Counted from the first letter of the stretch, positions 1 through 15,446 are shown. The stretch: DNA of 64,000 nucleotides from Phycisphaerae bacterium (GCA_046350315.1 JAXMAP010000002.1:1824390-1888389); one strand, 5' to 3'. Notes: generated by a model from the letters alone, not told the origin. Numbers and translations are program-made.

Positions 1-142
1 ACCGGTGCCGTTCGAGGCCAGCATCTCCTATCGTGACAGTTTCGCTCGTCATGCGGAGTTGAGCGAAGTTACGTTTGAAGACGCTGAGCCGGCGGCTGAG
101 CGGGACGACGAGGCAGACAACGGAGGTTCGGCCGATGCCTGA
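1..142 (+). CDS. 3' end (46 codons) of an upstream gene truncated by the window edge. Its stop overlaps the pAgo start by 8 nt. Candidate APAZ-domain partner of the short pAgo, identity not determinable.
   Basis: Open frame from nt 2 to a TGA at 140-142 (..PVPFEASISYRDSFARHAELSEVTFEDAEPAAERDDEADNGGSADA*). The ATG of the next gene (135) lies inside it, indicating translational coupling. No start codon in the window. Confidence 0.4.
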   Translation, partial: PVPFEASISYRDSFARHAELSEVTFEDAEPAAERDDEADNGGSADA

Positions 143-1694
143 ACTGCGATACATCAAGGAACCCGGCCTGCTTTTCCGGCACGATCAGGCTGTAGAGGAC
201 CCGCGGGACGGGTTGACGTTGTTCGGCCCACTCGACGAGGGCAAACCCTACGGCATTCGATGGGGGCTGATAGGGCCGGAGGACAGCCTTCAACGCGTTG
301 AGCAGTGGGTGTCCGGCATTAACAGGCGCGTTGTCGATTCCGAGCCTGTTCGCTATGGCCGAAAACAGTCGCCAAGCGCTCGCGGGCCCGATCTCGCGCG
401 CCCCCCGTACCCCGGATTTCACGCGGCGTTCGAGATTCCCTGGTCAAGTAAGCCGGTGCAGCGCCTCACTGTGCCAGAAAAGGAACTGGCCAAAGTCGCG
501 TTTCTCGATGACCCGCATCAACGTGTTTTCAACACAGTCAACGCGTACTCCGAACGCATCATCGACTGTCTTCGACGCGAAGAGGCCAGGCCGGACATAT
601 GGTGCGTTGCCATCCCGGAGTACGTTTATCAAAATTGTCGACCACGGTCCTACGTGGAATCGAGCGAGCGAGTCAAGGCCGAAGCTCGCTTGACGCGATC
701 GGAGGCAAAGGCCATCGCCGCTGCCCCGCTGCTGTTCGACGAGGAAAACAAGCTAGCCAAGCCGTACGAATACGAGCTGAATTTCCACCATCAACTCAAG
801 GCGCGGCTGCTTCCTCACAATGCTCCGACCCAGATCATTCGGGAAACGACCATCGCGCATCGCGACTTTCTCGACTCGAAGGGTGAGCCGACGCGGAAAC
901 TGGACGGCATGGAGTCAGCGATTGCATGGACAATATCGACGGCAGCTTTCTACAAGTCCGGCGGCCGCCCCTGGAAACTTGGCGCCGCTCGGCCTGGCGT
1001 GTGCTATGTCGGCTTAGTCTTCAAGCAAGACGAGAAACACCGCGATCCACGAACGGCGTGCTGTGCCGCACAGATGTTTCTCGATTCGGGCGACGGCGTT
1101 GTTTTCAAGGGCGCTGTCGGTCCGTGGTATCGCGGAAAACGAGGGCTCTTTCATCTTTCTCGCGCGGCCGCGGCTGAAGTAATCCGGATGTGCATCGACT
1201 CATATGCTGACCGGTTTGACGGCAAGCCGCCAGACGAAGTGTTTATCCATGGCCGTGTTCGTTTTGAAGATGACGAGTGGGCCGGGTTTCTCGACGGCGC
1301 AGGCGGCAAGACGCGTGTTGTGGGTGTCCGAATTCGCGACGACGAAGATCTGAAGGTCTTCCGCCGAACCGCTTTTCCGATCTTACGTGGACATTGGTTC
1401 CGCATCGGCGACCGAATGGCCTCGCTCTGGACGCGCGGGTTTGTGCCCAGGTTGCGCAGCTACCCCGGTCTGGAAGTGCCGAATCCCCTGTTTATCGACG
1501 TATGTCGCGGTGACGCCGACATCGAAACTGTCGTGCGCGATGTCTTGGCGCTCACAAAGCTGAATTACAATTCATGCGTCTTTGCGGATGGTGCACCGGT
1601 CACGCTGAAGTTCGCCAAAGCGGTCGGTGAGATTCTTACAGCCGGGCCGTTGAACGGAACGATTCCACCGCTTCCGTTCAAGCACTATATTTGA
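135..1694 (+). CDS. Short prokaryotic Argonaute (MID + PIWI domains only), predicted catalytically inactive.
   Basis: MID-like motifs: PDIWCVAIPEYVY, NFHHQLKARLL, PTQIIRETTI and AFYKSGGRPWKL (the K-GG-W box at the MID/PIWI junction). PIWI-like RNase H region: CYVGLVFKQDEKH sits in place of G-DVSH, DEVFIHGRVRFEDDEWAGF in place of the RDG-motif block, and RVVGVRIRDDED...PVTLKFAKAV at the C-terminal end. There are no acidic catalytic residues at the expected DEDX positions. The 520-aa length fits short pAgos. GGAGG lies 6 nt upstream of the ATG at 135, and the ORF table's 75 start is an in-frame upstream extension. Confidence 0.75.
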   Translation: MPELRYIKEPGLLFRHDQAVEDPRDGLTLFGPLDEGKPYGIRWGLIGPEDSLQRVEQWVSGINRRVVDSEPVRYGRKQSPSARGPDLARPPYPGFHAAFEIPWSSKPVQRLTVPEKELAKVAFLDDPHQRVFNTVNAYSERIIDCLRREEARPDIWCVAIPEYVYQNCRPRSYVESSERVKAEARLTRSEAKAIAAAPLLFDEENKLAKPYEYELNFHHQLKARLLPHNAPTQIIRETTIAHRDFLDSKGEPTRKLDGMESAIAWTISTAAFYKSGGRPWKLGAARPGVCYVGLVFKQDEKHRDPRTACCAAQMFLDSGDGVVFKGAVGPWYRGKRGLFHLSRAAAAEVIRMCIDSYADRFDGKPPDEVFIHGRVRFEDDEWAGFLDGAGGKTRVVGVRIRDDEDLKVFRRTAFPILRGHWFRIGDRMASLWTRGFVPRLRSYPGLEVPNPLFIDVCRGDADIETVVRDVLALTKLNYNSCVFADGAPVTLKFAKAVGEILTAGPLNGTIPPLPFKHYI

Positions 1695-1845
1695 GCCACA
1701 AATCGATACACAACCAGGAATGTGGTCCCACAAACAGTCTTGTTCTCGAACGGCCTGGGGGACCATCGGGCGCTTCCGTTTCGGCCGTTTGCTCGTGGAA
1801 CACGACGTGCAATAACGGCTGGCACGAACAGAAAGCGAGGAAGCA

Positions 1846-3342
1846 ATGACCGCAACGTTCAACTGCCCGAAGTGCCAGATCCCGATCGAAATCACCGAGG
1901 TGATGACCAGTCAGCTCCGCGACCGGCTGCGGAGCGAACTCGACGCTGAATTGGCGCCCGAGCGCACGCGACTGTCGGAGCAAGCCGCAAAGATCGCGGG
2001 CGACCGACAGGCGCTTGATAAGCAGCGCGAGGCCGTGGACGAGCAGGTCCGGCAGCGGCTGGATGCCGAGCGCCAGAAGCTCACCGCCCTCGCCCGCGAG
2101 AAGGCCGCCGCAGACATAGCGGTCGAGCTGCGCGACCGCGACGAGCAAATCCGCGAGGCCAATGCCAAGCTCAAGGCGGCCACGGACCAGGAACTCGCCT
2201 GGCGGAAGAAGGAGCGCGACCTTCAGGCACGCGAGGCGGCCCTCACAGCTGAGCGCAACCAAATGGCCGAGGAGTCGCAGCGCCAGGTCGCGGCCGAGCG
2301 GCAGAAGCTGATCGAGGAAGGTCGCAAGAAGGCCGCCGGTGAGGCCGAGGCGCTGGTTCGCGAGCGTGACGAGGAACTATCCGGGCTGCGCGATCGGCTC
2401 AAGACCGCGAACGAGCAGGAGCTTCTGCTTCGCAAGCGCCAGCGCGAACTGGAGGAGCGCGGCGAGCAGATGCAGCTTGAAATCGACCGCAAGGTTGACG
2501 CCGAGCGGCAGCAGATTCGTGAAGCTGCCCGCAACCAGGTCGGCGAGGAGTTTGAACTCAAGCTCCGTGACGAGCAGCAGAAGAACGAAACGCTGCGCAA
2601 GCAGATCGACGACCTAAAGCGCCGCGCCGAGCAGGGTTCCCAGCAGGCCCAGGGCGAGACGCTGGAACTGGTCGTCGAGGAGATGCTCGCCGACGCATTT
2701 CGGAGCGACCGAATCGAGGAGGTTCGCAAAGGCGTCCACGGTGCGGACGTTCTGCAGCACGTGCTCGCGTCGAATGGCGCCGCGGCCGGCACAATCCTCT
2801 GGGAAACCAAGCGCGCCAAGAACTGGGCGGCCGATTGGCTCCGCAAGGCCCGTGAGGATCAGCGGGAGGCTGGCGCCGCCGTGGCCATCATCGTCAGCGA
2901 AGTGCTCCCCGCGGGCGTCACCCACGTTGGGATCGTCGAAGGGGTCTGGGTAACCAGTCGCGCCTGCGCAATCGCACTGGCGAAGTCGATCCGGATCGGT
3001 ATGCTCGAAGCGGCCAATGCCCGTCGCGCCATGGAAGGCCAGCACGGCAAGATGGAGTCCGTGTACGGGTACCTGACGGGAGTCGAGTTCAAGAACCGCG
3101 TGGTCGGCATGCTGGAGCCGCTGATCGCGATGCAGCAGACGCTCCAGAAGGAAAAGGTCGCGACGCAGCGCAGTTGGGCGGCGCGCGAGAAGCAAATTGA
3201 TCAGGTGTTCGGCGGGCTGGCTTGCGTTTACGGCGACCTTCAGGGGATCATCGGCGGCTCACTGCCGCGGATTGAGGCCTTGGAGCTGCCGGAATCGCCC
3301 GAGCCGAAGGCGGCCGGCACCTTGGCTCTTTCAGCGGGATAG
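1846..3342 (+). CDS. DUF2130-like protein: N-terminal zinc ribbon, long coiled coil, C-terminal restriction-endonuclease-like PD-(D/E)xK domain (RmuC-like architecture).
   Basis: N-terminal CPKC zinc ribbon. Residues ~20-260 are E/R/K/Q/A/L-rich heptad-like coiled coil. C-terminal block EEMLADAFRSDRIEEVRKGVHGADVLQHV...GTILWETKRAKNWAADWLRKAREDQREAGAAVAIIVSEVLP carries D...E-x-K. RBS GAGGAAG lies before the ATG. Confidence 0.65.
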   Translation: MTATFNCPKCQIPIEITEVMTSQLRDRLRSELDAELAPERTRLSEQAAKIAGDRQALDKQREAVDEQVRQRLDAERQKLTALAREKAAADIAVELRDRDEQIREANAKLKAATDQELAWRKKERDLQAREAALTAERNQMAEESQRQVAAERQKLIEEGRKKAAGEAEALVRERDEELSGLRDRLKTANEQELLLRKRQRELEERGEQMQLEIDRKVDAERQQIREAARNQVGEEFELKLRDEQQKNETLRKQIDDLKRRAEQGSQQAQGETLELVVEEMLADAFRSDRIEEVRKGVHGADVLQHVLASNGAAAGTILWETKRAKNWAADWLRKAREDQREAGAAVAIIVSEVLPAGVTHVGIVEGVWVTSRACAIALAKSIRIGMLEAANARRAMEGQHGKMESVYGYLTGVEFKNRVVGMLEPLIAMQQTLQKEKVATQRSWAAREKQIDQVFGGLACVYGDLQGIIGGSLPRIEALELPESPEPKAAGTLALSAG

Positions 3343-3360
3343 CCTCCGGGAGATGGCGCG

Positions 3361-5079
3361 TTGATAACGGCGATTGAGATCGAGAATTTCAAGGGCATCG
3401 GCCCGCGCCAGCGGATCGAGTTGGCCCCGATCACGTTGCTGTTCGGGGCCAATAGTTCCGGCAAAAGCACGTTCATTCACGCACTCCATTACGCCCTTGA
3501 GGTTCTCCAACGGCACAACTGCGACGCCGAACGCACCGCTTCCGGCGGTGAGTTTATCGATCTGGGCGGATTTCGCAGTTTCGTTCACGGCCGGGATTTG
3601 CAGCGCCGCGTGTCGATGCGGTTCGACCTCGACCTGCGCGAGCACAGCCTGCCGACCTACGGCGAGCGTGAGCCCGACTTCTCGATCTTTGATGAGGGTT
3701 ATGCAGACCGAGTCGAGCGCGCGGCCGTCGAATTTCAGGTCGCCTGGGACCACCAGAGTCAGATGCCGATTGTCTCGCGCTACGCGGTGGAACTGAACGG
3801 CGAGCGGTTTGCCGCGTTGGAAACCGACGCCGGACGCCGCGCAACCGTGCTCGCCGAGCTGAACTGGAACCATCCCGTTTTGCGCGAAGAGGGCGACGAA
3901 CAGGCGGCAGCAGACCAGGAATTGGAGGACCTTCACTCGAAGGTCGTCGTTCTGCATGAAGAGGCAGCTAAGCGCGGTTTGCGCAAGGATCCGCCGCCGC
4001 ATCTCGCATTCGGAATTCTGCATAGTTTGGTGAGCAAGGCGTTCGGCGTCGATGATGCGGATGTACAGCCGACGCCGGGGTGGGGTTTGGCTGGTTTGAT
4101 TGATGCACTCCCGACATGGGGGACAGTGCTCGAACCTGCGCTCCCGCTCTCATCGTCGACCGCGGGCGGCGACTCCGCCTCCAATGCCGACGCCGGCCAG
4201 CCGCGATCACAGTCAGAGATGAATGAAGCGGCCGAGCAATTCGCTGCATTGCTGACCCAACTGCTGGTTGGCCCCGGTGAACTGCTCACGCAAGCGCTCG
4301 CGTCGACTCGATATCTGGGGCCGCTCCGGGAGAAACCCATCCGCTCGCACGACGCCCATCACGTAGGCGACGCGAGGCGTTGGGCCAGCGGACTCGCGGC
4401 CTGGGATGCCCTGTTTCAGCGCGACGCAGCGTTCCTGACGCTCGTCAGCGAGTGGCTCAGTCGATCCGACCGGCTCGGCGCGGGAGTGAGCGTCACGAGC
4501 AGTGAATATCGCGAGATTGCCGTAGACGACCCGATTCTCGTGCAGCTTTCGGGCGGACACGCGTTCGATGACCTTGACTTGAACGATCTTCGTAATCGCC
4601 TTCGGCGAATCCCGATTCGCCGTAGGATCGTTCTGATAGATGAGGCGACCGGCGTCCAGTACCAACCGTTCGATGTCGGCGAAGGAATCTCGCAGCTTCT
4701 CCCCGTCGTTGTGGCACTCCTCGATCCAACGCCGGGCGTCATCGCGATCGAACAACCGGAACTGCACGTGCATCCAGCGATCCAAGTCGGCCTCGGAGAC
4801 CTCATCGCGTTCGGGATGGGGGTGCATGGCGCGACACGAGTAATCGAGACGCACAGCGAACACTTGCTTCTGCGGCTGCTGCGTCGGATCCGTGACACGG
4901 AAGACAACGGGCCTGAACAGCACGAGCATGTGCTTTCGCCGGACGACGTCGCCGTCTGGTACATTGAAGCTGTTGACGGCGTCACACGCGCGACGCGACT
5001 CCGCGTCGATGCCTCTGGCGAATTCCTTGATCGCTGGCCAAGGGGCTTCTTTGAAGAACGTGCTCAGGAACTTTTCTGA
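3361..5079 (+). CDS. AAA_21/ABC-type ATPase with C-terminal DUF3696 (OLD/Septu-PtuA/PARIS-AriA-like ATPase class).
   Basis: N-terminus IEIENFKGIG...LLFGANSSGKST (Walker A). Walker B/D-loop IAIEQPELHVHP. C-terminal ...FLDRWPRGFFEE (DUF3696 hallmark). TTG start 18 nt after the preceding stop. Confidence 0.8.
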   Translation: MITAIEIENFKGIGPRQRIELAPITLLFGANSSGKSTFIHALHYALEVLQRHNCDAERTASGGEFIDLGGFRSFVHGRDLQRRVSMRFDLDLREHSLPTYGEREPDFSIFDEGYADRVERAAVEFQVAWDHQSQMPIVSRYAVELNGERFAALETDAGRRATVLAELNWNHPVLREEGDEQAAADQELEDLHSKVVVLHEEAAKRGLRKDPPPHLAFGILHSLVSKAFGVDDADVQPTPGWGLAGLIDALPTWGTVLEPALPLSSSTAGGDSASNADAGQPRSQSEMNEAAEQFAALLTQLLVGPGELLTQALASTRYLGPLREKPIRSHDAHHVGDARRWASGLAAWDALFQRDAAFLTLVSEWLSRSDRLGAGVSVTSSEYREIAVDDPILVQLSGGHAFDDLDLNDLRNRLRRIPIRRRIVLIDEATGVQYQPFDVGEGISQLLPVVVALLDPTPGVIAIEQPELHVHPAIQVGLGDLIAFGMGVHGATRVIETHSEHLLLRLLRRIRDTEDNGPEQHEHVLSPDDVAVWYIEAVDGVTRATRLRVDASGEFLDRWPRGFFEERAQELF

Positions 5080-6026
5080 TGGTGTACGAGTTCGCCCTGG
5101 AGCCCGCGACCCTCGCGACATGGGAGCAGTTTCGCTATCTAACCGAGAAGTTCGGCGTAGATAACGGGCGCCTCATCGCTCAGTTTCCGAAATCGTGGAA
5201 GAAACTGGTCTATGACGCCTTCGCCGGCGCCGGCGACGTGGAGAAGAAGCGAATCGAGGAACGGCTCCAGCAGGAATCGTTTAGTCGCAAGCTCACACGG
5301 TCGAACCGCACGTACGATTCTGCGCAGGCTTGGCTTCCGAACGCCGAGCGTCAGCAGGAGGGTTCCGACCCTTTCCGCGCCATCATTGCCACGACCAACC
5401 CTAACAACTGCCCGTCCGTTCGCATCGCCTCCGAGCTTGATGAGACGGATCGGCTCTGGTCTGTAAGTCGAGAAGCCCGGATCGCCCGCACTTCGCACGC
5501 GCTAACAGCGGCCGCAGCCCCTCTTGTTCGCTGCAGTAGGGAGCTCCTGATTGTAGATCCGTATTTTGACCCGCAAGTTTCGAGGTTTCTTGACGTCTTT
5601 CAGTCACTGATGCGAGAAGTGTGTGGAGCGCGAAACGTGCCTCGGCGACTGGAGCTCCATTGCTCGAATGCGAGGAGCGGCACCACGGAGCATTGGGAGC
5701 AACAATGTAGCTCACGCCTGAGGCGGTTCATCGGCGCCAACTCCCGACTTCGCGTCGTCAGATGGGCTCAGCGTGCCGGAGGCGAGACGTTTCATGCGCG
5801 ATACATCCTGACCGAGCGCGGGGGACTCCGCTATGACGTTGGGCTCGATGCGGGACCACCTGGTGAAACTACAGACGTAATGCTTCTCGATACGCAGCTG
5901 CACATCGCTCGCTGGAATGACCTTCAGGAAGTTGACGCGAACGGGCGCACGCGCACTCCGGCCTTCGACAAGGTCGATGAGCTACTCATCTCGAACAGCA
6001 GTGCGACGCGCGTTTTCCCTACGTGA
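5079..6026 (+). CDS. Hypothetical protein, translationally coupled partner of the AAA ATPase (candidate effector component, no recognisable domain).
   Basis: Its ATG overlaps the TGA of the ATPase gene by 1 nt. 315-aa ORF with non-repetitive composition. No HNH, Toprim or PD-(D/E)xK motif confidently recognised. Confidence 0.5.
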   Translation: MVYEFALEPATLATWEQFRYLTEKFGVDNGRLIAQFPKSWKKLVYDAFAGAGDVEKKRIEERLQQESFSRKLTRSNRTYDSAQAWLPNAERQQEGSDPFRAIIATTNPNNCPSVRIASELDETDRLWSVSREARIARTSHALTAAAAPLVRCSRELLIVDPYFDPQVSRFLDVFQSLMREVCGARNVPRRLELHCSNARSGTTEHWEQQCSSRLRRFIGANSRLRVVRWAQRAGGETFHARYILTERGGLRYDVGLDAGPPGETTDVMLLDTQLHIARWNDLQEVDANGRTRTPAFDKVDELLISNSSATRVFPT

Positions 6027-6581
6027 CGGGCAATCGCCTTTTGCTTTCCTGAGCGCGGCGCTTTGCAAGACGTTGAGCAATTGCCACTTTATCTGAGCGA
6101 AGTCGCCCAACCCTCGCCTCACGCGCCCCGTGCCCCCCGGCGACACCAGGTCGCGCACGAGGGCTCTCAAGTCTCCGACGATCTGTCCGGCAAGGCGTAC
6201 AGATACCTGCCACCGCCTATCCCGCCCCTGGCGACAGCCAATGCTGTAGCCGGCAAACCTAATTGGCGCGCGACGAACGTCGCGAATTACCGCCTGCTCG
6301 CGCTCGAAGAATTCGTGCCGGCCCTTCGTCGCCAGCAGCACGAAGAACCGCCCGTGCCGCAGGTACTGCATGTTCGCTAGGCCCTGCTTCTTGCGCCGGC
6401 AGCGCGCCCACTTCGAAATCGCGATGCCGTAACGCTCGATGAGTTTCGCATCGACGGCGGCCGGATCCTTGCCCTCCGGGATGGTCCCGGTCACGTAGAA
6501 CCAGTAGCCGTGCGTGATGTACGCGACGGCGAGCTGCTGCACAAACCCCTCGATCGACGTGGCGACGCAACGATACTCCAT
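5982..6581 (-). CDS. Hypothetical protein. N-terminal ~115 aa look protein-like, the C-terminal half is Arg-rich and possibly frameshifted or degenerate.
   Basis: Start MEYRCVATSIEGFVQQLAVAYITHGYWFYVTGTIPEGKDP... is preceded by GGGAGGG 7 nt upstream on the minus strand. The long ORF-table N-terminal extension (to 6815) has no RBS and is rejected. Confidence 0.35.
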   Translation of the reverse strand: MEYRCVATSIEGFVQQLAVAYITHGYWFYVTGTIPEGKDPAAVDAKLIERYGIAISKWARCRRKKQGLANMQYLRHGRFFVLLATKGRHEFFEREQAVIRDVRRAPIRFAGYSIGCRQGRDRRWQVSVRLAGQIVGDLRALVRDLVSPGGTGRVRRGLGDFAQIKWQLLNVLQSAALRKAKGDCPSRRENARRTAVRDE

Positions 6582-6663
6582 GCGATTGTCCCTCCCCTTC
6601 AAATGAGCGGGTTGTTCTGGCACAAACCCGCAAAGCCGTCCTGAACCTCCTTTCGTTCGAGCC

Positions 6664-6885
6664 TCAATCCGAATCGGGCGCCGGCCCGCAGAACTCCAGC
6701 AGGTCGCGAAGTTCTTGCTGGGTCGGCTCCCGGCCAAAATCCTCCCGATAGCACGCTGCGATGCGTGCCCGCACGTCCGGCGGAATCCTGCTCGGCTCCG
6801 GCCAGTACCGTTCATCGAACTCCTCGATGATGTCGGCCGGCCCGTCGCCGATGACGCCGCCGCTGCCCGTGCGCCACCAACCCAT
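6664..6885 (-). CDS. Small hypothetical protein (73 aa from the internal Met).
   Basis: ORF MGWWRTGSGGVIGDGPADIIEEFDERYWPEPSRIPPDVRARIAACYREDFGREPTQQELRDLLEFCGPAPDSD, non-repetitive, co-oriented and immediately upstream of the previous gene. Confidence 0.3.
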   Translation of the reverse strand: MGWWRTGSGGVIGDGPADIIEEFDERYWPEPSRIPPDVRARIAACYREDFGREPTQQELRDLLEFCGPAPDSD

Positions 6886-8495
6886 GCGAATCACCTCCCT
6901 TCGCTCGAAGCCCAATCCTCATGCACGCCGGCCACGCGGTCGCCCGCGTCACCGGCCCGGCGTGAAAACCAGCGCCTTCCATGAAAAACTCGGCCGCTGG
7001 CCGCCATGCCGTGCGCACACTGCTTCTTCCGAAGCTGACACCGCATCGGTGTATCCGAATGTCGTCGCTTCCCCGCCTTCGCGAACCGAATCTTGCTGTC
7101 GGCGTCGCCGCCAGCCCATCGGTTCGCATCACGCGATCGGCCTCCATCCGCACCATGCGGCTAGATTCATCTATTGCAGTTGCGCCCTGCATCAAAAACA
7201 CGATCCCGTCGCTGACCATTGCCGAACCAACTCGCCGAAGTCGCTCGCGAATTTGACGTAGGTCGTCCAGCAACGCGATCAGACCGGGACCGTGGCGGTT
7301 GCGGCCCCGCAACCTCGACGCACCAGCGGATACACCCCGCCTGTGCATCGTCATTCCGCTGCCAAACGACGGCCCTCTCCCGAGGGTCCTCGTTTGACCG
7401 CATTGGCTGTCTTCCGACCCGCCGACACGGGCCGGGGCAGGACTTCCCTGCCCCGGCGCCGCACCGACACATCTGCAAGCATGGGAATTGCTCGTCAGCC
7501 CTTTCGTCGTCGTTCACGCACCCGGCACCACCCGTTGATGCACGAACGGCATCGCGACTGCCTTGCCGCGCTGCCGCCACGCTTCCGCGTGCTCCTACTC
7601 AGGCCCCGCTCCCAGACTCCGGCTTTTCAAGCACCCGCGCGACAAATCGCGGGCACCGGGCATCACCCCGGCCGCCAGAGCCCTTCCCCGGTTAGAACCA
7701 GTCTCCATCTGATCGGTCACGTCGCTTGACCTGGAAACGCCGCGTGCGTCTCTCCCGCACGTCGCGTTCACAACGCTGATCACCCGCCGGCTCCCGCCGG
7801 AAGGCATGTTTACGTCCGCGGGTGCGGACGATTTCGGGGTACGAATCTAGAAGCTCCCCTTACCCTCAGCGCAGGTCTTTCTATCGCGGTTTGGCACCGT
7901 CTCCGATCAAACTCACCCAGAAGCGGTTATCCCGCCTTTCGCAGTTGAGCTTTTCACCGCGCGCCGCTTGAGGCGCGACGCCGAGGCTTATCATCGCCCC
8001 GGTCGCCGGCATCGCTGCCGGCGAGCTCCCTGCCTGGGCTGGCGTTGAGCGGGCCGTCTTCGAGCATGCGCTCGAAAGGTTGGCCCGAACCCCGCAGGGG
8101 GATTAGCCGCCGTGTGGCGGCATCACCCACTTTGACTGACCCGGCTCGCGCTGACGCGCGAGTCTGTCCCGGTCGCCCAGTTTCGATATGCAAAGAACGA
8201 GGCGGTCGCTTTCGACGGGCCGTGCCAAGCGGACAAGCCGCGCCGCGGCCGCATGCGAGCGAATCGCCCATGCGATATGGGATCGAACGGCTGGATTACT
8301 CCAAAAAGCTTGGGATTACTCAGCCGAGCCTCCCTCGCACTGGACGAGCCGGTCTCCCGGCAATCCAGCGCTACGAGCCTCGAACATGGCGGGTGATGAA
8401 GTCCGCCTCCTTAGCCTGATTGGTGGTCAGGTTTACCGGTTGTCCGATCCCACGATTCAGACGCCAGGCCACGCGTTTGCATGATTCTGACGATC

Positions 8496-8516
8496 GTGAA
8501 ACAAACGCTGTTTCAC
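8496..8516. promoter_or_regulatory. Perfect 8-bp-arm palindrome GTGAAACA-N5-TGTTTCAC upstream of the XRE regulator gene, candidate operator.
   Basis: gtgaaacaaacgctgtttcac read directly from the sequence, ~175 bp upstream of the HTH gene start. Confidence 0.3.
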
Positions 8517-8663
8517 AGGCCGAGAGTAGCGCAACGGAAGCTGCAAGTCACGCACCATCAGGTTCGGCCCGTCGCGGGATAGCGGACCCCACCGGTACCA
8601 GGTCCGGCGTGAAGGCTCGCGCGTCACCTGTCCCGCGACACCCCAGCCAGGGCGAAAAAGGGG

Positions 8664-8691
8664 CTTGACTCCAGCCCGCTGAGTGTTACTA
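8664..8691 (+). promoter_or_regulatory. Sigma-70-like promoter (TTGACT-N16-TACTAT) abutting the start codon of the XRE gene, implying a leaderless mRNA.
   Basis: -35 TTGACT and -10 TACTAT with a 16-nt spacer. The -10 hexamer ends 0-1 nt before the ATG. There is no room for a Shine-Dalgarno sequence. Confidence 0.35.
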
Positions 8692-9110
8692 TGTATGCGA
8701 ACAGTGAAAGGAGCGGTGCCTTGGCCCGAAAACCGAGAAGTGCTGACGAGATCGGCGACATTCTTCGCCGCCAGCGGAACGAGGTGCTCGGAAAGGGCCT
8801 GCGCGAAATGGCCCGCCAGCTCGGTACCGCTCCGGCCCACCTTACCGACATCGAACACGGCAACCGCTCGCCGTCCGAAGCCCTGCTGGTCAAGATCGCC
8901 CGCGCCTACGAGATTCCCGAGCCGCAGCTCCGCGCCGCCTGGAGCAAGCCCGATGAAATCGTCGAAGAAATCGCAAGTCAGGATGCGACGGCGGCCGCCA
9001 AAGTGCCCGAACTCCTGCGGTCGGCCCGGAAGTTCACCGAATCGCAATGGAATGCACTGATCGACGCGGCCAAGAAGCTGGCCGCCGAGAAGAAGGGCAA
9101 GGCGGACTGA
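8691..9110 (+). CDS. XRE-family helix-turn-helix transcriptional regulator (ImmR/CapH-like).
   Basis: HTH block LREMARQLGTAPAHLTDIEHGNRSPSEALLVKIARAY. 139 aa. Paired with the downstream ImmA/IrrE peptidase through a TGATGG stop/start overlap. Confidence 0.8.
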   Translation: MYANSERSGALARKPRSADEIGDILRRQRNEVLGKGLREMARQLGTAPAHLTDIEHGNRSPSEALLVKIARAYEIPEPQLRAAWSKPDEIVEEIASQDATAAAKVPELLRSARKFTESQWNALIDAAKKLAAEKKGKAD

Positions 9111-9838
9111 TGGCCGCACGTCGGTACGAGTACGGCAAGCTCTTCGAGCCCGCCAGCGGCGGCAAGCTGATCGAGCGCAAAGCGCGCCGCTCGCTCTCGT
9201 ACTGCATCCACAAACTCGGGTTTTCGGAAGTACCACTCCCCATTCCCGTCGATCGCTGGATCGAAACGGCGTTTGGCATCCGATTCGGCATCGCGGACTT
9301 GTCGCACATCGGTCGCCGTGTGCTGGGTGCGTCGTTCCTGCGCGACCGCGAGATCCTCATCTCCGAGAACGCCCTGTCCAATGAAGGACGCTACCGCTTC
9401 ACGTGTGCTCACGAGTTGGCCCATTTCGTATTGCATGAGCACGTCCGCGACCAGTTCTGCGACGAGGAAGAACCGGAAATCGTTTTCGACGACGAGATTG
9501 AGCGCGAGGCCGACCGGTTCGCCGCGGCGTTCCTGATGCCGGTGAATCTGTTCGAGCGTGAGGTGGTCCTGATTGCCCGGGATATCGGCGCCGACCCGCA
9601 CTGGTGCCTGACCGAGTTAATGCTGGCGAGCGACGAGTCGATCAAATTGTGGCAGAACATCTTCGTGCCGGCGCTCAGCCGTCGCTTCGGCGTCTCCAAG
9701 ACGGCGGCCCTGATTCGCGCGCACGGTCTTCAGCTGATTGGCGACGATCCGCGGACGCTGATTCCGACGCGGCTTTTTTACGACCTGCTGCCCAAGCCCG
9801 TTTCCACCGTTGCTCCGAGGCCAATGGAGGGTGCGTAA
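9110..9838 (+). CDS. ImmA/IrrE-family zinc metallopeptidase (DUF955, CapP-like).
   Basis: HEXXH motif in FTCAHELAHFVLHEH plus the downstream EREADRFAAAFLMP. Start MAARRYEYGK overlaps the XRE stop. Confidence 0.8.
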   Translation: MAARRYEYGKLFEPASGGKLIERKARRSLSYCIHKLGFSEVPLPIPVDRWIETAFGIRFGIADLSHIGRRVLGASFLRDREILISENALSNEGRYRFTCAHELAHFVLHEHVRDQFCDEEEPEIVFDDEIEREADRFAAAFLMPVNLFEREVVLIARDIGADPHWCLTELMLASDESIKLWQNIFVPALSRRFGVSKTAALIRAHGLQLIGDDPRTLIPTRLFYDLLPKPVSTVAPRPMEGA

Positions 9839-9904
9839 GATCGCGGTTTTTTTTGGCCGAAGCGTTCGCTTGCACGCGAACATGAGTACATCGGAGATGA
9901 TAAC

Positions 9905-10195
9905 GTGGTTGTCTACGACCTGACCAACACGGCAGTCGCAACGGCTGACGTTTCGATCCGTCCGCCGACCCAGCCGGAACTGCTTGCGATCACGGTCGCA
10001 TTGCTCTCGTACGAGAACCGCAGCTTTAGCGAGCTGATCGACACGCCGGTCGCAATCACTGACCGCAACCGTCGCCGGCTCGCAGAACTGATCGAGGAGC
10101 GCACGCCGTCGTTGGCCCGCGAGTTTGGTAACCCCACGCATCTGCGGGCGCGCCTGAAACAGTTGGTAGGGCTCCAGATCTTCCGCGAATCCTAG
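9905..10195 (+). CDS. Hypothetical protein (96 aa).
   Basis: ORF co-oriented between the ImmA-like and excisionase-like genes. No motif recognised. Confidence 0.3.
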   Translation: MVVYDLTNTAVATADVSIRPPTQPELLAITVALLSYENRSFSELIDTPVAITDRNRRRLAELIEERTPSLAREFGNPTHLRARLKQLVGLQIFRES

Positions 10196-10202
10196 CACGC
10201 GA

Positions 10203-10589
10203 TTGCGAACGGCTTTCGACGCTATGATCGACCAAACCACTTCAACGCCGTCAAACGCTGACCTCCTGCGGGTGTTGCAGCAGATCGAAGTCCATCTCTC
10301 CGCGCTTCGGGACGGGACGACATCGTCACGGCCCGAGTGGCTTACCGTGGATGAAGTCGCATCGGAACTCAAACTTTCGCGTGACTCGATCGAGCGATTG
10401 ATCGCCTGCGGCCGGCTGCAAGCGGCCAAGGTGACCGGTATCGCCGGACGCGGACGGCGCCGCCGTCTTCGAATTCACCGCGACTGGGTTGATGTGTTTC
10501 TCAGATCGTCGGCGAAGCTCCCGCCCTCTCCACGAAAGACCCGAAACCGTCGTTCGAGCGTCTCCAAGTCGATCGACTTCATCCAGTAG
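10203..10589 (+). CDS. Excisionase-family helix-turn-helix DNA-binding protein (Xis-like).
   Basis: WLTVDEVASELKLSRDSIERLIACGRLQAAKVTG resembles the excisionase/MerR-like HTH. Convergent with and overlapping the 3' end of the integrase gene. Confidence 0.5.
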   Translation: MRTAFDAMIDQTTSTPSNADLLRVLQQIEVHLSALRDGTTSSRPEWLTVDEVASELKLSRDSIERLIACGRLQAAKVTGIAGRGRRRRLRIHRDWVDVFLRSSAKLPPSPRKTRNRRSSVSKSIDFIQ

Positions 10590-11829
10590 CGGCTTGTAGC
10601 GGCGCGGCCGTGCTGGCAGACTCCGGCCAGAGGCGCGATCGAACCAGGTTGACAACCCGCCGTAATCTTTCCAGCCCGATCTCCTCGATGTACACACCAC
10701 TCATCCCGGGGATGCTGTGACCCATGATGCGATGGATGGCGTGCTGGTCGCCGCAATCGTCCGCCCAAGTGCGAAACGTGTGTCGCAATGAATAGAAGCC
10801 CAACCCGTATCGCTTGAGCTTCAGTTCGACCAGCAGCCCGTCAAACCAGTCGCCAAGGCGGTCCACATACACGACTTTCTTGATCTCGCGGCCGTCGCTT
10901 CGCTGCATGATCTGCCGAACCAGCGGGTAGCCCTGTTCGCTACGGAACAGCAGCGGCTTTGCCTCGTCGCTGGCGGCTTTCGGTCGCTCACCCTCAAGCA
11001 CGGTCCGGATCGCCGCGACCGTCTCCGGCCAGAGCGGCACGATTCGGCGCACTGCGGTCTTCGGCCGCTCGAAGTCGATAATCGCTCGGTCCAGGTCGAT
11101 CGCCACGGTGGGCACAGCCGAACAGTCGGTGTTCCCGAACCCGCCGTTGATCCCCAGCAGAATCGCGGCTTTCACGTTCGCGGATGCCGCCTTGAGCAAT
11201 GCGCGAATCTGCTCTGCCGTAAAAAGTTTCTTGCCGTTTTCACGCTCGCGCTTCGCCCGGCTTCGTCGTACGTCCGCGGCCGACGGCTTGGCGAACGCCT
11301 GGCCGTATCGAGGTAGCTGCTCAAGGACTCCATTCTGAACGGCCCATTTGAACATGCCCTGGATGGCGACGATGGTCCGCGTGATTGCATGTACGCCGAG
11401 CGCCTTGTTTCCGCGCAGGCCGCGCGATCCAATTAAGCGCCGGTAGGCTAGGAAGTCATCCGGCCTGAGACTCCTCACCGGTCGCGCTGTGCCAACCGAG
11501 CGAGCAAACTGTCGAATCACACGGCGGCAATCCTCGAACCATCGACCGCCGATCTGCCCGGTCTCGACGCGCTGCATCTGGTATGCGAGGAACTGGTTTC
11601 CCAACTCCTTCACGGTAAACTCGCCTTCCTCTGCCGGGGATGGCTCGCGCCCCGCGTGCAAATCCTCGGCGATGCGTAGATAATTCTGGTGCGCGGCGTC
11701 CGGGTCGGACCAGACGCCGAAGAAGTGCAGCTTGCCGAGGATCTTCTTACACCACTGACCGTTCGGGTGAGCAGTCAGCGGGAAGGAGGGATACGGCTTG
11801 TTCGGCTTGCGACGAGGACGCTTGGCCAT
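10579..11829 (-). CDS. Tyrosine-type site-specific integrase (phage integrase family).
   Basis: C-terminal catalytic region ...LRHTFRTWADDCGDQHAIHRIMGHSIPGMSGVYIEEI (R...HxxR...Y). N-terminus MAKRPRRKPNKPYPSFPLTAHPNGQWCKKI is typical. GGAGG RBS before the ATG at 11829. The upstream ORF-table extension to 11931 is rejected. Confidence 0.85.
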   Translation of the reverse strand: MAKRPRRKPNKPYPSFPLTAHPNGQWCKKILGKLHFFGVWSDPDAAHQNYLRIAEDLHAGREPSPAEEGEFTVKELGNQFLAYQMQRVETGQIGGRWFEDCRRVIRQFARSVGTARPVRSLRPDDFLAYRRLIGSRGLRGNKALGVHAITRTIVAIQGMFKWAVQNGVLEQLPRYGQAFAKPSAADVRRSRAKRERENGKKLFTAEQIRALLKAASANVKAAILLGINGGFGNTDCSAVPTVAIDLDRAIIDFERPKTAVRRIVPLWPETVAAIRTVLEGERPKAASDEAKPLLFRSEQGYPLVRQIMQRSDGREIKKVVYVDRLGDWFDGLLVELKLKRYGLGFYSLRHTFRTWADDCGDQHAIHRIMGHSIPGMSGVYIEEIGLERLRRVVNLVRSRLWPESASTAAPLQAATG

Positions 11830-11970
11830 GACGACAACCTCCGGCGCGCCGCTGCGTTTGTTCGCTCCACGAAACGCGAGCGTAGAGGGCGACCCGGTTG
11901 TCGTCAAGGTTGTCGTCGTGTTTTTCCACAACAGCAGTAAGCAACATAAGTCGTTTATTTACAGATAGTT

Positions 11971-12043
11971 GCCACCGTAGCTCAATTGGCAGAGCAGCGG
12001 TTTTGTAAACCGCAGGTTTCGGGTTCGAGTCCCGACGGTGGCT
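11971..12043 (+). tRNA. tRNA-Thr (anticodon UGU), no encoded CCA.
   Basis: Cloverleaf folded by hand. Acceptor GCCACCG/CGGTGGC, D-stem GCTC/GAGC, anticodon stem GCGGT/ACCGC with loop TTTGTAA (U33, UGU, A37), T-stem TCGGG/CCCGA, T-loop TTCGAGT. Confidence 0.85.
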
Positions 12044-12129
12044 GTTCACACCACCTTTCGCCTTGTGCGATGGACGGGTGCAAGTTTCGTCGGCACGCCA
12101 CCGACTTTCGCACCTGTTCTGGAGCTTTC

Positions 12130-13461
12130 TCACGTCAGTCTCGCGCGCTCGCATGCCAGCAGGAACCGCGCGACCTGCAGCTCCCCCCAGTATCGCGCGC
12201 GGCCTGGCCACACGCCGGCGATGAAGCCCTGGTGCCCGCCGTCGCGCGTGATCTGAGGAATGATCCACGGCGAATCGAGCATCTCGTTCGGAATCGACTC
12301 GGCGGGAACGAACGGATCGTCGCGCGACGCGATGACGAGCGTCGGAACGCGGATTCTGGTCATCAGCGGGCCGCAACTGCATCGCGCGTAATAGTCGTCC
12401 ACTCCGGCATAGCCGAACACCTTCGCCGTCACGATGGCGTCGAACTCCTCCATCGTGCGGCAGGTTCGTAATCGCTCCACGTCGATCAGGCCCGGAAATT
12501 GCCGCGCTTTTTCGAGAGCCTGCGGGATCAACAGTTGCATGAAATACCGCGAATACCGACCGCCCAGCGCTCGCGAGATAGTCGCCGCGCATTTGGACAG
12601 ATCGAACGGCGCGGCGACTACGGCCGCGCCGGACACTCGCGCCACCGCCCTCGAATCCTGCACCGGCGCGCCGGAGACCGAAACCTGGGCCTCCGCGCCC
12701 GAAACCGGCGCCACAGCGCGGGAAACCTGCGCCGCCGCACCGCAGACGCTCGCCGCCGCGCCCGAAAGTCCGGACGCTGCGCCGCGCAAACCCAGCAACC
12801 GCGCCGCCACGCTGCCGCCCAGCGAGAAACCGACCAGATAGATCGACCGGACGCCGCCGGCGCGCAGATGCGCGATGCTTGTCTCGACGTCGTCGACGTC
12901 GCCGGCTGAATACGTCCTGTGCGTGCGGTTCATTCGGCCGCCGCAGCTTCGGAATTCCATCACCGCAACGTTCCAGCCGTGCGGCGCGAGTAGCGCGGTC
13001 AGGCCGTGAATCCACGGCGCCTGCGCGGAACTGCCCAGCCCGTGGAGCAGCAGCGCGGTCGGCCCTAACGGATCGCCGTGCAGTCGATGAAGCCACAGTT
13101 CGTCGCCGTCGGGCGTCGGAACTGCCGTCGATTCAAACGCGGCTCTTCGCACACGCCGGAAGAGGTACGTCCAGATGGTCTGGCCATGCGCGTTTCGCAG
13201 CCACCAGGCGGAGCGAAACGGGTGGCGCGACAATTCGGCGAGAATTTCGTTCTTGAAACGTCTCGCCGCGGACGCGTCGCGCGTCGCATCGGCGGGCACG
13301 CGCGCTCCGTCAGAGCCGCGACCGTAAGGGAGCGGTCGGTCCGGAGCGGCGAGCGTCGTCGGGCTCGCCGGGATGGCCTCGACGCCCAGGCCGACCGCTC
13401 CCTTACGGTCGCGGCTCTGACCAGACTCAGGCTTCGCGGATTCCGCCCTTCGCAACGGCAT
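12130..13461 (-). CDS. Alpha/beta hydrolase, YheT-like family. The true start is probably downstream of the annotated one (GTG within ...VPADATRD...).
   Basis: GDELWLHRLHG...LLLHGLGSS...HGWNVAVMEFRSCGG...YLVGFSLGGSV (nucleophile elbow GxSxG) ...ASRDDPFVP...GGHQGF. The 5' ~150 nt of the ORF is the translation of a REP-like palindrome (RPLPYGRGS), so the annotated Met is unlikely to be the real start. Confidence 0.65.
   Translation of the reverse strand: MPLRRAESAKPESGQSRDRKGAVGLGVEAIPASPTTLAAPDRPLPYGRGSDGARVPADATRDASAARRFKNEILAELSRHPFRSAWWLRNAHGQTIWTYLFRRVRRAAFESTAVPTPDGDELWLHRLHGDPLGPTALLLHGLGSSAQAPWIHGLTALLAPHGWNVAVMEFRSCGGRMNRTHRTYSAGDVDDVETSIAHLRAGGVRSIYLVGFSLGGSVAARLLGLRGAASGLSGAAASVCGAAAQVSRAVAPVSGAEAQVSVSGAPVQDSRAVARVSGAAVVAAPFDLSKCAATISRALGGRYSRYFMQLLIPQALEKARQFPGLIDVERLRTCRTMEEFDAIVTAKVFGYAGVDDYYARCSCGPLMTRIRVPTLVIASRDDPFVPAESIPNEMLDSPWIIPQITRDGGHQGFIAGVWPGRARYWGELQVARFLLACERARLT
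12640..12800. repeat. Degenerate ~27-30-bp tandem repeats (minisatellite) inside the hydrolase CDS, encoding a low-complexity Gly/Ala/Ser/Val insert.
   Basis: Recurring units cgcgccggagaccgaaacc, cgcgcccgaaaccggcgcc, cgcgcccgaaagtccggacgc. Protein insert GAASGLSGAAASVCGAAAQVSRAVAPVSGAEAQVSVSGAPVQDSRAVARVSGAAVV. Confidence 0.5.
13311..13418. repeat. REP/MITE-like palindromic element, copy A (29-bp perfect inverted repeat with ~50-nt loop).
   Basis: cagagccgcgaccgtaagggagcggtcgg ... ccgaccgctcccttacggtcgcggctctg. Shares the core gaccgtaagggagcgg/ccgctcccttacggtc with four other loci. Confidence 0.7.
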
Positions 13462-13478
13462 CGCTCACCCACTCCGCG

Positions 13479-15446
13479 TCATGGCTTCACGCCCCCCGCC
13501 TGTATCTCGATCTCGTGCGCGAATTCCGGCTGGCGATTCGCTCGCGCCAGCCGTACCGCCTCGCGATACGCATCCAGCGCGGCGCGCGGTTCGCTGGCCA
13601 GTTCGTGCACGAAGCCATACGCGAAACGCACCTCGGCGTCGTCCGGGTGCGCCTCGACCGCCCGTTTCACCGCGTCCAGCGCCGACGACTTTCGGCCCTT
13701 CACAAGATGGATCGCGGCCAGTTGGGTCAACGCGCTCCGGTCGTGCGGGTTGTCGCGTAATCGCGCCTGCTGGCGCTGTTCCTCTGCGTCCAGCGCGCCG
13801 GCGCTGAGAACACGGGCGAAATTGAGCTGCGCATTGGGATACACCGGCCGCGCGGCCAGCGCCGCGCGGAAGTGCGTCTCGGCTTCCGCCGCGCGATTCA
13901 GCGAGAGCAACGCGGCTCCGAGATTGTTGTGATACACCGGGTCGTCCGGCGTTCGTTTCAGCAGTGCCTGGTACTCCGCGACCGCCTCGGCGAATTTCTT
14001 GTGGCCTAGATAAGCCTCGCCCAAGCGACGGTGTCCAAAGTCATATGCCGGGTTGTCCGCCACTGTTCGCGACCAGAATTCGATCTCACCGCGCCAAGTC
14101 GGGACCCGCTGATACGTGAACCACGCCAGCGCTCCGACAGCGCCGACGCAAATTAGCGTTACCAGCGCCCCGGGCACCCGCGCCGCAAGGCCGTGCGCCG
14201 GCGGCGTACCGAAGGTCAGCTTCGCAAGGCTCTGGGCGGCGAGCGCAACGAGAATCGCCGGGGCGATCGCGGCCAGATAGACGTACTGGTCGCCGACCGG
14301 CGCGTGGCGCAGATAGCCGAAGTTCAAGAGTCCCAGCACCGGCAGCATCGTGATGGCGTAATGGGCGGCGCACCAAAGCGCCGCGGCGCCAGGTCGGAGC
14401 CGCGGCGTGAGCGTGCTGTCAGGCGTGCGAGCCGGCGCGTTCGAATCTGAGACTTGAGATTTCTGTTCGCCGCCAGGCGGCGTTGTTTTCGCCCTCGCGC
14501 GGCGCGAAACAGTCCATGCAGAGGTGAACAACACCGCCGCCGCGAGCAATACTGCAATCGGCGCCAGCAGCCACGGCAGCGCCATCGCTGGCGTCCATTG
14601 CGGGTAGACGGTCGCCAAGTGCGCGGGCCACAGGAACTTGCCCAGGTAGAACCAGAATGCCGTCGCCGCGACGACCGGCCGTAGCGGAAGCGCCGCCGCC
14701 CCGACGTAGACTCCCTGCGCCTCGAATTGCGAGTCGATTCGAATCAGCACCGCGCCGATGACCAGCAGGATCGCCAGCGGCTGGACGAGCGACCAGCCGC
14801 GCCGGCGACACAAGACGGCGTCCGCGACCAGCGTCGAACCGAGCATCGTCACCGCCGCCGATTTGCTCAGCATCGCCGCCAGAAACGCGAACATGGCCCA
14901 GCGATACAGCGCGGGGCGGGCGTCGCGCCGCCATAGCAGATAGGACAGGAAACCGATCAGCGCGAATAGCGTCGAGAGCACGTTTTTTCGCGATGCCAGC
15001 CACGCGACCGAGGCGGCCTGCATCGGGTGCAGCGCGAAAATCGCCGCCGCCAACAACGCCGCCGGCTGCGCGAGCCCGAGCATCAGCGCGACGCGCAGCA
15101 CCAGCAGCGCATTGGCCGCGTGCAGCAGGACGTTGACGGCGTAATAACCGCCCGCCCAGTCGCCCCAGAGCTGATGTTCGACCCAGTGCGTGGTGAACGT
15201 GAGCGGATAAAACTTCCGCACCACGTCGATCGGCAGCCAGGTGCGGATCAGGCCGTCGATCGAGCGCAGATTCGGATTGTCGCGAATGTAGATGTCGTCA
15301 TCCCAGACGACAAAATCGTTTCGAATACCCGGCGAGTACGCCAACAGCAGCGCAAGCGGCAGGACGGCCCAGCCGGCCAGTGGCCACCGGCGTGCTTCGC
15401 GGCCGTCGGGTGTGGTGAGGCCAAGTTGAATAGAAGCTGCGTTCAT
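13479..15446 (-). CDS. Polytopic membrane protein with C-terminal TPR repeats (PMT/GT39- or O-antigen-ligase-like N-terminal domain).
   Basis: N-terminal ~420 aa very hydrophobic with multiple TM segments. C-terminus has repeated A..Y...L TPR-like 34-mers (AEAVAEYQALL..., AEAETHFRAAL..., SALDAVKRAVE...). Confidence 0.6.
   Translation of the reverse strand: MNAASIQLGLTTPDGREARRWPLAGWAVLPLALLLAYSPGIRNDFVVWDDDIYIRDNPNLRSIDGLIRTWLPIDVVRKFYPLTFTTHWVEHQLWGDWAGGYYAVNVLLHAANALLVLRVALMLGLAQPAALLAAAIFALHPMQAASVAWLASRKNVLSTLFALIGFLSYLLWRRDARPALYRWAMFAFLAAMLSKSAAVTMLGSTLVADAVLCRRRGWSLVQPLAILLVIGAVLIRIDSQFEAQGVYVGAAALPLRPVVAATAFWFYLGKFLWPAHLATVYPQWTPAMALPWLLAPIAVLLAAAVLFTSAWTVSRRARAKTTPPGGEQKSQVSDSNAPARTPDSTLTPRLRPGAAALWCAAHYAITMLPVLGLLNFGYLRHAPVGDQYVYLAAIAPAILVALAAQSLAKLTFGTPPAHGLAARVPGALVTLICVGAVGALAWFTYQRVPTWRGEIEFWSRTVADNPAYDFGHRRLGEAYLGHKKFAEAVAEYQALLKRTPDDPVYHNNLGAALLSLNRAAEAETHFRAALAARPVYPNAQLNFARVLSAGALDAEEQRQQARLRDNPHDRSALTQLAAIHLVKGRKSSALDAVKRAVEAHPDDAEVRFAYGFVHELASEPRAALDAYREAVRLARANRQPEFAHEIEIQAGGVKP

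Follow-up and report, generated by a model that had tools for sequence, protein, structure and literature searches.

A DUF2130 gene beside a putative Menshen-related ATPase–effector pair in a defence island of a Phycisphaerae bacterium

Three co-oriented genes, immediately downstream of a short prokaryotic Argonaute (pAgo) gene, occupy positions 1846 to 6026 of a 64,000-nt stretch of DNA from a Phycisphaerae bacterium (GCA_046350315.1 JAXMAP010000002.1:1824390-1888389; the whole stretch is referred to here as the window). With moderate confidence, we read this locus as an island-borne anti-phage module in which an ABC ATPase (gene 2) would hold a PIN-tagged effector (gene 3), as kin of the NsnB-NsnC pair of Menshen and of HEC-03, and in which a DUF2130 protein (gene 1) would serve as an input or as a second nuclease. 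Menshen (NsnA-NsnB-NsnC) reportedly goes back to Millman 2022. The three genes are:

1846..3342, plus strand: gene 1, DUF2130 protein, 498 aa (open reading frame, ORF)
3361..5079, plus strand: gene 2, NsnB-type ABC ATPase, 572 aa, TTG start (ORF, Pfam, PADLOC)
5079..6026, plus strand: gene 3, candidate NsnC-like effector, 315 aa (ORF, AlphaFold 2 (AF2) model)

Direct reading of the ORFs and junctions bore out the layout given in the original prediction, an earlier interpretation of this DNA made from the sequence alone, namely three genes on one strand with spacings of 18 nt and -1 nt. The spacer between genes 1 and 2 contains a Shine-Dalgarno-like element (GGGAGA), and the stop codon of gene 2 and the start codon of gene 3 have 1 nt in common (TGATG); judging by this junction, gene 3 is translationally coupled to gene 2. 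Each of the three ORFs has many homologues and thus none of them is a chance product.

The ATPase and its cryptic effector

The conserved unit of the locus is the pair formed by genes 2 and 3. A scan with the gene 3 alignment, taking one genome per species, gave 80 loci that span many phyla (Acidobacteriota, Planctomycetota, Desulfobacterota, Pseudomonadota, Latescibacterota and others). In 79 of 83 loci the gene 3 homologue directly follows a homologue of gene 2, and at most of these junctions the two overlap by 4 or 1 nt or are 2-3 nt apart.

Gene 2 proved to encode the AAA_21/DUF3696 ATPase that had been predicted, including the motifs GANSSGKST and IEQPELHVHP. Its Pfam matches were AAA_21, AAA_15 and DUF3696 (the last at 2.8e-5), and because its N-terminus aligns from position 1 of AAA_15, the TTG start is supported. 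The best PADLOC matches were NsnB (2.6e-40), PDC-M55A (4.3e-38) and HEC-03B (4.3e-31), with AriA (7e-16), GajA (3e-10) and Old (4e-8) scoring far lower, and weak matches to SMC_N and RecF were seen at the N-terminus. An alignment of 64 sequences was used to read the following elements:

3445..3471, plus strand: Walker A GANSSGKST, aa 29-37 (consensus GxNSxGKS[TS] in 61 of 64 sequences)
4318..4329, plus strand: GPLR motif, aa 320-323 (R323 invariant)
4672..4695, plus strand: signature region DVGEGISQ, aa 438-445 (GxG instead of SGG)
4738..4761, plus strand: Walker B VIAIEQPE, aa 460-467 (E464 in 64 of 64 sequences, Q465 in 63 of 64)
4933..5070, plus strand: C-terminal DUF3696 helix, aa 525-570 (Pfam DUF3696)

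Walker B of ABC ATPases normally carries D-E, the position at which the gene 2 family has E-Q within the pattern hhhhE-Q-P-E. G440 and G442 are invariant in the 64 sequences, and from the alignment we take R323 to occupy the usual position of the Q-loop Gln. An E-N Walker B, a GxG and a Gln-to-Arg exchange in the Q motif are likewise the described motifs of NsnB (PMC12065111), and gene 2, having the same unusual motifs, thus shares the derived peculiarities of that family. By its profile matches and motifs, gene 2 is an ABC ATPase of the NsnB (Menshen) type, and its DUF3696 helix is the predicted clamp for the PIN-like domain of the effector.

Gene 3 had been described originally as having no recognisable domain, and for sequence searches this held: Pfam, NCBIfam and PADLOC gave no family match even at E=10 (only a chance-level PDC-M41A), and the gene 3 profile gave only chance-level matches (E>0.1) to PDB sequences. 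With sequence profiles having failed, the fold was identified by structure comparison alone. The AF2 model, for which a 44-homologue alignment was the input, reached a pLDDT (predicted local distance difference test) score of 93.8 and a predicted template modelling (pTM) score of 0.89, and consists of two domains:

5079..5486, plus strand: N-terminal degenerate PIN-like domain, approximately aa 1-136 (AF2 fold comparison)
5526..6023, plus strand: C-terminal PLD/MIT_C-like domain, approximately aa 150-315 (AF2 fold comparison)

In the N-terminal domain, E4 and E8 are conserved across the 44 homologues and the other PIN acidic positions are missing; with only these two conserved, the domain is therefore a degenerate PIN. 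The C-terminal domain conserves D160, E192-x-H194 and D257, together with the motif H239-x-R241-x4-[D/E]246 (5793-5816), in which H and R are invariant in 44 of 44 sequences and which lies in the family context GGExLH[NA]RYILT[DE]RGG. This domain has the PLD fold, and the catalytic HxK(x)4D shows R for K; some relatives have H-D-R. The PB-PLD1 class of NsnC carries a conserved acidic residue and an H-D-R motif, and the H-D-R motif is also found in MIT_C (PMC12065111). Likened by this published description, the modelled architecture of gene 3 matches that of PB-PLD1-type NsnC effectors; among the 120 matches listed in the gene 3 profile search there were only close gene 3 relatives, and no NsnC from a DUF262 operon for comparison. 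The advice to look for a cryptic nuclease in gene 3 was therefore sound in that a nuclease fold is present, but not in the folds it named, since the fold results (PIN plus PLD/MIT_C) ruled out HNH, Toprim and PD-(D/E)xK.

The gene 3 family is large, with 3,174 clusters at 50% identity in a profile search of 1.84 billion representative proteins, and of the members seen none was named and none had a Pfam domain. A phage homologue search found no phage-encoded homologues of gene 3.

The defence neighbours of the pair include type I restriction-modification (R-M), SIR2-HerA, OLD, GmrSD and dGTPase genes. Two upstream settings of the pair are commoner than DUF2130. In about 18 gene 3 loci a type I R-M operon (hsdR-hsdM-hsdS) ends 3-4 bp before the ATPase, and on a Methylocella plasmid this arrangement stands before the pair and SIR2-HerA after it. 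Upstream of the ATPase-effector pair in 20-26 of 74 loci there is a co-oriented CARF-sigma54 activator (Pfam Sigma54_activat and HTH_8), for example (locus handle before the colon; PADLOC RtcR_PspF2--CARF_AAA_HTH, 2e-198):

L008:5661-7172: CARF-sigma54 activator
L002:4603-6120: CARF-sigma54 activator
L032:5273-6793: CARF-sigma54 activator

Just before the ATPase start, 11 loci have a sigma54 promoter-like element, TGGCAC-N5-TTGC (e.g. L032:6987, L057:7095 and L056:1092), and this arrangement suggests that a CARF sensor may induce the defence pair transcriptionally.

Tandem pairs of an ATPase and a PIN-PLD protein were observed in Vicinamibacterales (L039, L040, L053, L058, L061 and L063) and also in L034, L072 and L167. 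The second effector of these tandems is divergent: it carries an H-D-R motif and matches the gene 3 profile at E values of roughly 1e-18 to 1e-21.

The DUF2130 protein and its partners

Gene 1 matched Pfam DUF2130 at 1.4e-55 over aa 238-482; this was its sole Pfam match at E<=0.01, and Pfam RmuC (PF02646) was not matched. The DUF2130-like make-up proposed originally, with a CPKC motif, a coiled coil and a D...ExK site, was confirmed by the Pfam match, the alignment and an AF2 model, which show a CPxC knuckle at the N-terminus, then a long hairpin of coiled coil and a nuclease domain of the PD-(D/E)xK type:

1864..1875, plus strand: CPKC, aa 7-10 (alignment; beta-hairpin aa 4-15 in the AF2 model)
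1897..2697, plus strand: coiled-coil region, aa 18-284, a pair of long helices interrupted at aa 162-170 (AF2 secondary structure)
2710..2955, plus strand: PD-(D/E)xK core, aa 289-370 (alignment, AF2 model)

Within the core, D301 (2746-2748) and E320-x-K322 (2803-2811) are invariant, and the domain shows a restriction-endonuclease-like fold with a D...(D/E)xK site; DUF2130 has been placed in the PD-(D/E)XK superfamily (PMC3424549). Homologues of gene 1 show paired length changes within the coiled-coil region. Throughout the family C7 and C10 are invariant, and no other N-terminal cysteine is conserved; these two (CPxC) are too few for a single-chain zinc ribbon, and a zinc site formed between two gene 1 chains, like the Rad50 hook, is possible. 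There are at least 3,936 gene 1 homologues, and the phage homologue search found DUF2130 in a few Helicobacter phage records only. We know of no function for any DUF2130 protein, and a literature search found no paper tying DUF2130 to defence.

A second search, started from gene 1, gave seven homologues (44-72% identity), four of which precede an NsnB-type ATPase and a protein of 311-346 aa, and a metagenome scan added one further DUF2130-ATPase-effector triad. Together, the gene 3, gene 1 and metagenome searches yielded 8 distinct triads of DUF2130, NsnB-type ATPase and PIN-type effector, which range from 44 to 63% in GC, reach down to 40% identity in gene 1, and have tight or overlapping spacing (a 4-nt overlap in L087 and L169). 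Across these triads the pairwise identities of gene 1 and gene 2 are correlated (Spearman rho 0.87) and gene 3 does not track them; five triads have a member of the gene 3 family as their third protein, and three have a protein of another family with a homologous N-terminus. In L084, gene 1 is 72% identical to that of the window, gene 2 only 41%, the third gene is unrelated and the pAgo is 95% identical, so that ATPase and effector have been replaced with DUF2130 still directly upstream. In a neighbour-joining tree the DUF2130-linked ATPases mostly group together. These patterns speak for genes 1 and 2 being inherited together while the effector is swapped, as in Menshen.

DUF2130 has several recurrent neighbourhoods. 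A GH172/DUF2961 gene is its neighbour in six loci, and the more distant DUF2130 genes (L141:897-4195, L130, L129, L143 and L097) have several other partner genes, among them an OLD-type ATPase-Toprim (4-nt overlap), an SNF2 helicase with an N6_N4 methylase, SIR2_2, and a 1,008-aa SMC-like ATPase.

Relatives, proposed mechanism and the role of gene 1

The suggestion that the locus is not a described system did not stand for genes 2 and 3, which match Menshen NsnB and NsnC (PMC12065111) and resemble HEC-03 (10.1101/2024.01.29.577857). As in Menshen, three genes are co-oriented and the middle one is an ABC ATPase with a DUF3696 tail. Gene 2 is like NsnB in its Walker B E followed by an amide residue, its GxG and its Arg for the Q-loop Gln, and the last gene is like NsnC in combining an inactive N-terminal PIN with a C-terminal PLD/MIT_C-type effector (PB-PLD1-like, H-D/N/A-R). 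Also as in Menshen, the last gene is polymorphic between related loci, and these are often embedded in type I R-M loci. Unlike Menshen, however, the locus has no NsnA (ParB-DUF262 with QRxxxW and DGxQR, plus ParBDB), a position held here by the DUF2130 nuclease and in most relatives by nothing; in addition, gene 3 matches no PADLOC NsnC model, and gene 2 exceeds the NsnB profile by about 200 aa. Canonical membership of Menshen was rejected, as the defining NsnA/DUF262 gene is absent near the pair. A DUF262 motif was found in 1 of 83 gene 3 loci (L029), where it belongs to a GmrSD/HEC-06-type protein downstream of the pair, and in 0 of 83 further loci scanned; DUF262 was not among the 25 neighbour families listed of 49 found.

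In the preprint of Payne et al. (2024), E. coli was protected by HEC-03, in which an ABC ATPase is paired with a PIN protein, and both genes were required (10.1101/2024.01.29.577857). The pair resembles it as a two-gene module of ABC ATPase and PIN-domain protein that has no DUF262 partner and is embedded in other defence systems, and the match of gene 2 to PADLOC HEC-03B (4.3e-31) ranks below those to NsnB and PDC-M55A. It differs in that a VapC-like PIN protein is given as the partner in HEC-03 whereas gene 3 is a degenerate PIN with an added PLD, in that gene 3 misses the HEC-03 partner model (no PADLOC match at E<=0.01), which leaves a likeness at the level of the PIN fold only, and in that a DUF2130 gene accompanies the pair here and none does in HEC-03. 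The PADLOC model that matches the ATPase is HEC-03B (458 positions), and the preprint gives the ATPase as HEC-03A and the PIN protein as HEC-03B; the A/B naming thus appears to be swapped between the two.

With PARIS (AriA/AriB), Septu (PtuA/PtuB), Gabija (GajA/GajB) and OLD, the locus shares the ABC ATPase superfamily and, as proposed below, a scheme in which oligomers of the ATPase keep a nuclease in check until a trigger arrives. Their partners are Toprim or HNH nucleases or helicases, unlike the PIN-PLD protein found here, and gene 2 is nearer to NsnB than to their ATPases; domains of the HNH (PtuB), Toprim/DUF4435 (AriB, C-terminus of GajA) and UvrD type (GajB) were not found in genes 1-3. 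ShdA of Shield is an RmuC-domain protein active in phage defence (PMC10270631); gene 1 is like ShdA/RmuC in joining a coiled coil to a PD-(D/E)xK nuclease, but matches Pfam DUF2130 and not RmuC. A membrane anchor was not noticed in gene 1, for which no transmembrane prediction was made.

Since the Menshen census was anchored on DUF262 (PMC12065111), both the NsnA-less pairs and the DUF2130 triad appear to be undescribed. Catalogues of Menshen built from the DUF262 sensor miss ATPase-effector pairs that have no DUF262, which make up a sizeable family, widely distributed and so far unannotated (gene 3 alone has about 3,200 clusters at 50% identity), with a PIN-PLD effector that is invisible to sequence profiles and with differing upstream partners, here DUF2130, in the sensor position. 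Tools that annotate defence systems would be enlarged by a new model of two or three genes.

In AlphaFold 3 models, NsnB forms a tetramer, each ATPase dimer of which grips a single NsnC PIN-like domain with its paired DUF3696 helices, and NsnA makes no predicted contact with NsnB or NsnC (PMC12065111). Building on this precedent and on the gene identities, folds, motifs, synteny and co-divergence observed, we infer how a complex might form, what might trigger it, what its substrate could be and what gene 1 might do. Gene 2 probably forms an ATP-bound oligomer; with E-Q in Walker B and thus without the catalytic Glu, it is likelier to be an ATP-bound switch than a fast hydrolase or motor. Its C-terminal DUF3696 helices would grip gene 3 by the degenerate PIN domain and so keep the single-motif PLD-type nuclease domain monomeric and inactive. 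An infection cue, conceivably an anti-restriction protein of the phage or else aberrant DNA by comparison with PARIS, PrrC and OLD, would shift the nucleotide state of the ATPase and free or re-orient gene 3. PLD nucleases with one half-site, such as Nuc, BfiI and Zucchini, work as dimers, and gene 3 has a single H-x-R half-site, so that its release would let the active site assemble; the assembled nuclease would then degrade nucleic acid and stop the phage or the cell. Gene 1, at the position of NsnA in Menshen, would most likely be a DNA-binding or DNA-processing input subunit, or else a second nuclease, in this sub-lineage.

Several points weigh against this reading. We know of no experiment on any family member. 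In gene 3, the HKD motif has R in place of its canonical K, and MIT_C-type domains are, to our knowledge, without demonstrated nuclease activity; gene 3 might instead bind a substrate or cleave something else. NsnA (DUF262) is absent, and no ORF near the window locus has a DUF262 motif. With regard to gene 1, DUF2130 was upstream in only 4 of the 79 gene 2-gene 3 pairs from the gene 3 search, all four in Planctomycetota, and the 75 pairs that do without it make gene 1 dispensable for the pair in general. The three-gene synteny foreseen in the original prediction is thus kept for the pair and not, in most loci, for DUF2130, although 8 divergent triads exist. The correlation between genes 1 and 2 could be simple co-inheritance of neighbouring genes; the neighbour-joining tree is without support values, and L037 falls outside the DUF2130-linked clade. 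Among 38 DUF2130 loci with enough downstream sequence, an ABC ATPase was directly downstream in only 8, some of them OLD-type, and many DUF2130 genes stand alone (on plasmids) or adjoin a GH172 gene.

These last points fit an alternative that we regard as rather unlikely, though it is the strongest of those considered: two independent neighbours, with gene 1 a stand-alone defence or DNA-repair nuclease (cf. ShdA), genes 2 and 3 a self-sufficient pair of HEC-03/NsnBC type, and their adjacency a product of island clustering and co-transfer. Most DUF2130 genes have no NsnB-type ATPase, being alone on plasmids or next to unrelated genes; HEC-03 functions as two genes, and Menshen NsnA itself has no predicted contact with NsnB or NsnC (PMC12065111). 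Independence is harder to reconcile with the recurrence of the triad in 8 divergent loci of differing GC and with tight or overlapping spacing, with the co-divergence of genes 1 and 2 and the near-clade of DUF2130-linked ATPases, and with L084, which keeps DUF2130 upstream despite a replaced ATPase and effector. We put the chance that gene 1 is functionally coupled to the gene 2-gene 3 pair at roughly one half, and a three-gene system is plausible. A stronger form of the ATPase-holds-effector reading, to which we give somewhat less than an even chance, is that DUF2130 is a genuine DNA-sensing or DNA-processing input subunit that replaces the ParB-DUF262 NsnA in a new Menshen-like type, the NsnB-like ATPase and PIN-effector being a portable output cassette that is wired to DUF262, DUF2130, type I R-M or a CARF-sigma54 activator. 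If DUF2130 is coupled in this way, it would be the first biological role for a DUF family of thousands of members, and immunity of the Menshen type would be modular at its input as well as at its effector.

The island and the neighbouring pAgo

To the right of the locus, the following genes were found:

10579..11931, minus strand: tyrosine integrase (domain search)
11971..12043, plus strand: tRNA-Thr(TGT), abutting the tyrosine integrase

The integrase and tRNA-Thr are the right-hand boundary of an integrated island, and GC rises rightward across this boundary from 0.58-0.64 to 0.66-0.69. Integrase, tRNA-Thr and GC step together indicate that the whole region is a defence island integrated at tRNA-Thr in a planctomycete of Phycisphaerae type, the nearest relative with a name being Phycisphaerae bacterium RAS1; no direct repeats (att-like) marking the island ends were found within 1-14000. 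An exact-protein look-up recovered L001, an 11-kb contig with the same locus that extends left of the window, and on it a type I R-M specificity subunit lies upstream of the TIR_2 gene described below. The proposal of a defence-type locus in a cluster of defence genes was thus upheld, the three genes lying in a tRNA-Thr/integrase island by type I R-M and a pAgo system. It is very unlikely that genes 1-3 are instead a housekeeping module for DNA repair or recombination, with an RmuC-like nuclease, an SMC/RecF-like ATPase and no defence role. The RmuC-like architecture of gene 1, the weak similarity of the gene 2 N-terminus to SMC_N and RecF and the non-defence contexts of some DUF2130 genes would suit such a module; the location in an integrase/tRNA-Thr island with GC below that of its surroundings, the patchy taxonomic distribution, the R-M, SIR2, OLD and GmrSD neighbours and the best ATPase matches, all of which are defence families, speak against it.

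The upstream neighbour of the three genes is:

75-1694 (ORF), likely start ATG at 135, plus strand: short class-I pAgo (PADLOC pAgo_I, 2.4e-188)

From the ATG at 135, as called on the source contig, the pAgo has 519 aa; the TTG at 75 is a less likely start. A 485-aa TIR_2 (TIR-APAZ) gene lies directly upstream and overlaps the pAgo start, just outside the left end of the window (L001:3301-4758). We take a TIR-APAZ gene to be the partner expected of a SPARTA-type short pAgo, and with a TIR-APAZ of its own the pAgo (135..1694) therefore belongs to a complete SPARTA-type pair, which does not include genes 1-3. Between the stop codon of the pAgo (1694) and the ATG of gene 1 (1846), which is preceded by GAGGAAG, lie 151 nt. 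This gap holds a single weak terminator-like hairpin (1753-1771) and no strong terminator, a promoter search found no sigma70-like site around it, and a TGGCAC at 1819 is without a matching -12 element.

The least probable of the alternatives, raised in the original prediction, is that genes 1-3 are accessory to the short pAgo and act after guide-dependent target recognition: the shared strand, the short gap without a strong terminator and the repeated pAgo-DUF2130 junction in L024 and L084 would allow it, but the pAgo is already paired with TIR-APAZ on the source contig, a pAgo occurs in only 2 of the 83 loci from the gene 3 search and in 1 of 90 loci added later, which came almost entirely from DUF2130 searches, the pAgos of these three related loci are 94-95% identical and thus a single lineage, and L023 has the triad (91-96% identity) but no pAgo. 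The module is not accessory to the pAgo and is a separate neighbouring system, which cautions that genes adjoining a pAgo are not automatically pAgo accessories.

Three further genes were found between gene 3 and the integrase:

8691-9110, plus strand: HTH gene (HTH_31/HTH_3; PADLOC capH, 2e-4)
9047-9838, plus strand: Peptidase_M78 gene, overlapping the HTH gene (PADLOC capP, 6e-25)
5982-6815, minus strand: convergent 277-aa ORF, overlapping the 3' end of gene 3 by 45 nt

The first two form a CapH/CapP-like regulator pair inside the island, at window positions 8691-9838. Searches of Pfam, NCBIfam and PADLOC yielded no match for the convergent 277-aa ORF; L001 and L084 likewise have a called gene at the corresponding position, despite the different third gene in L084.

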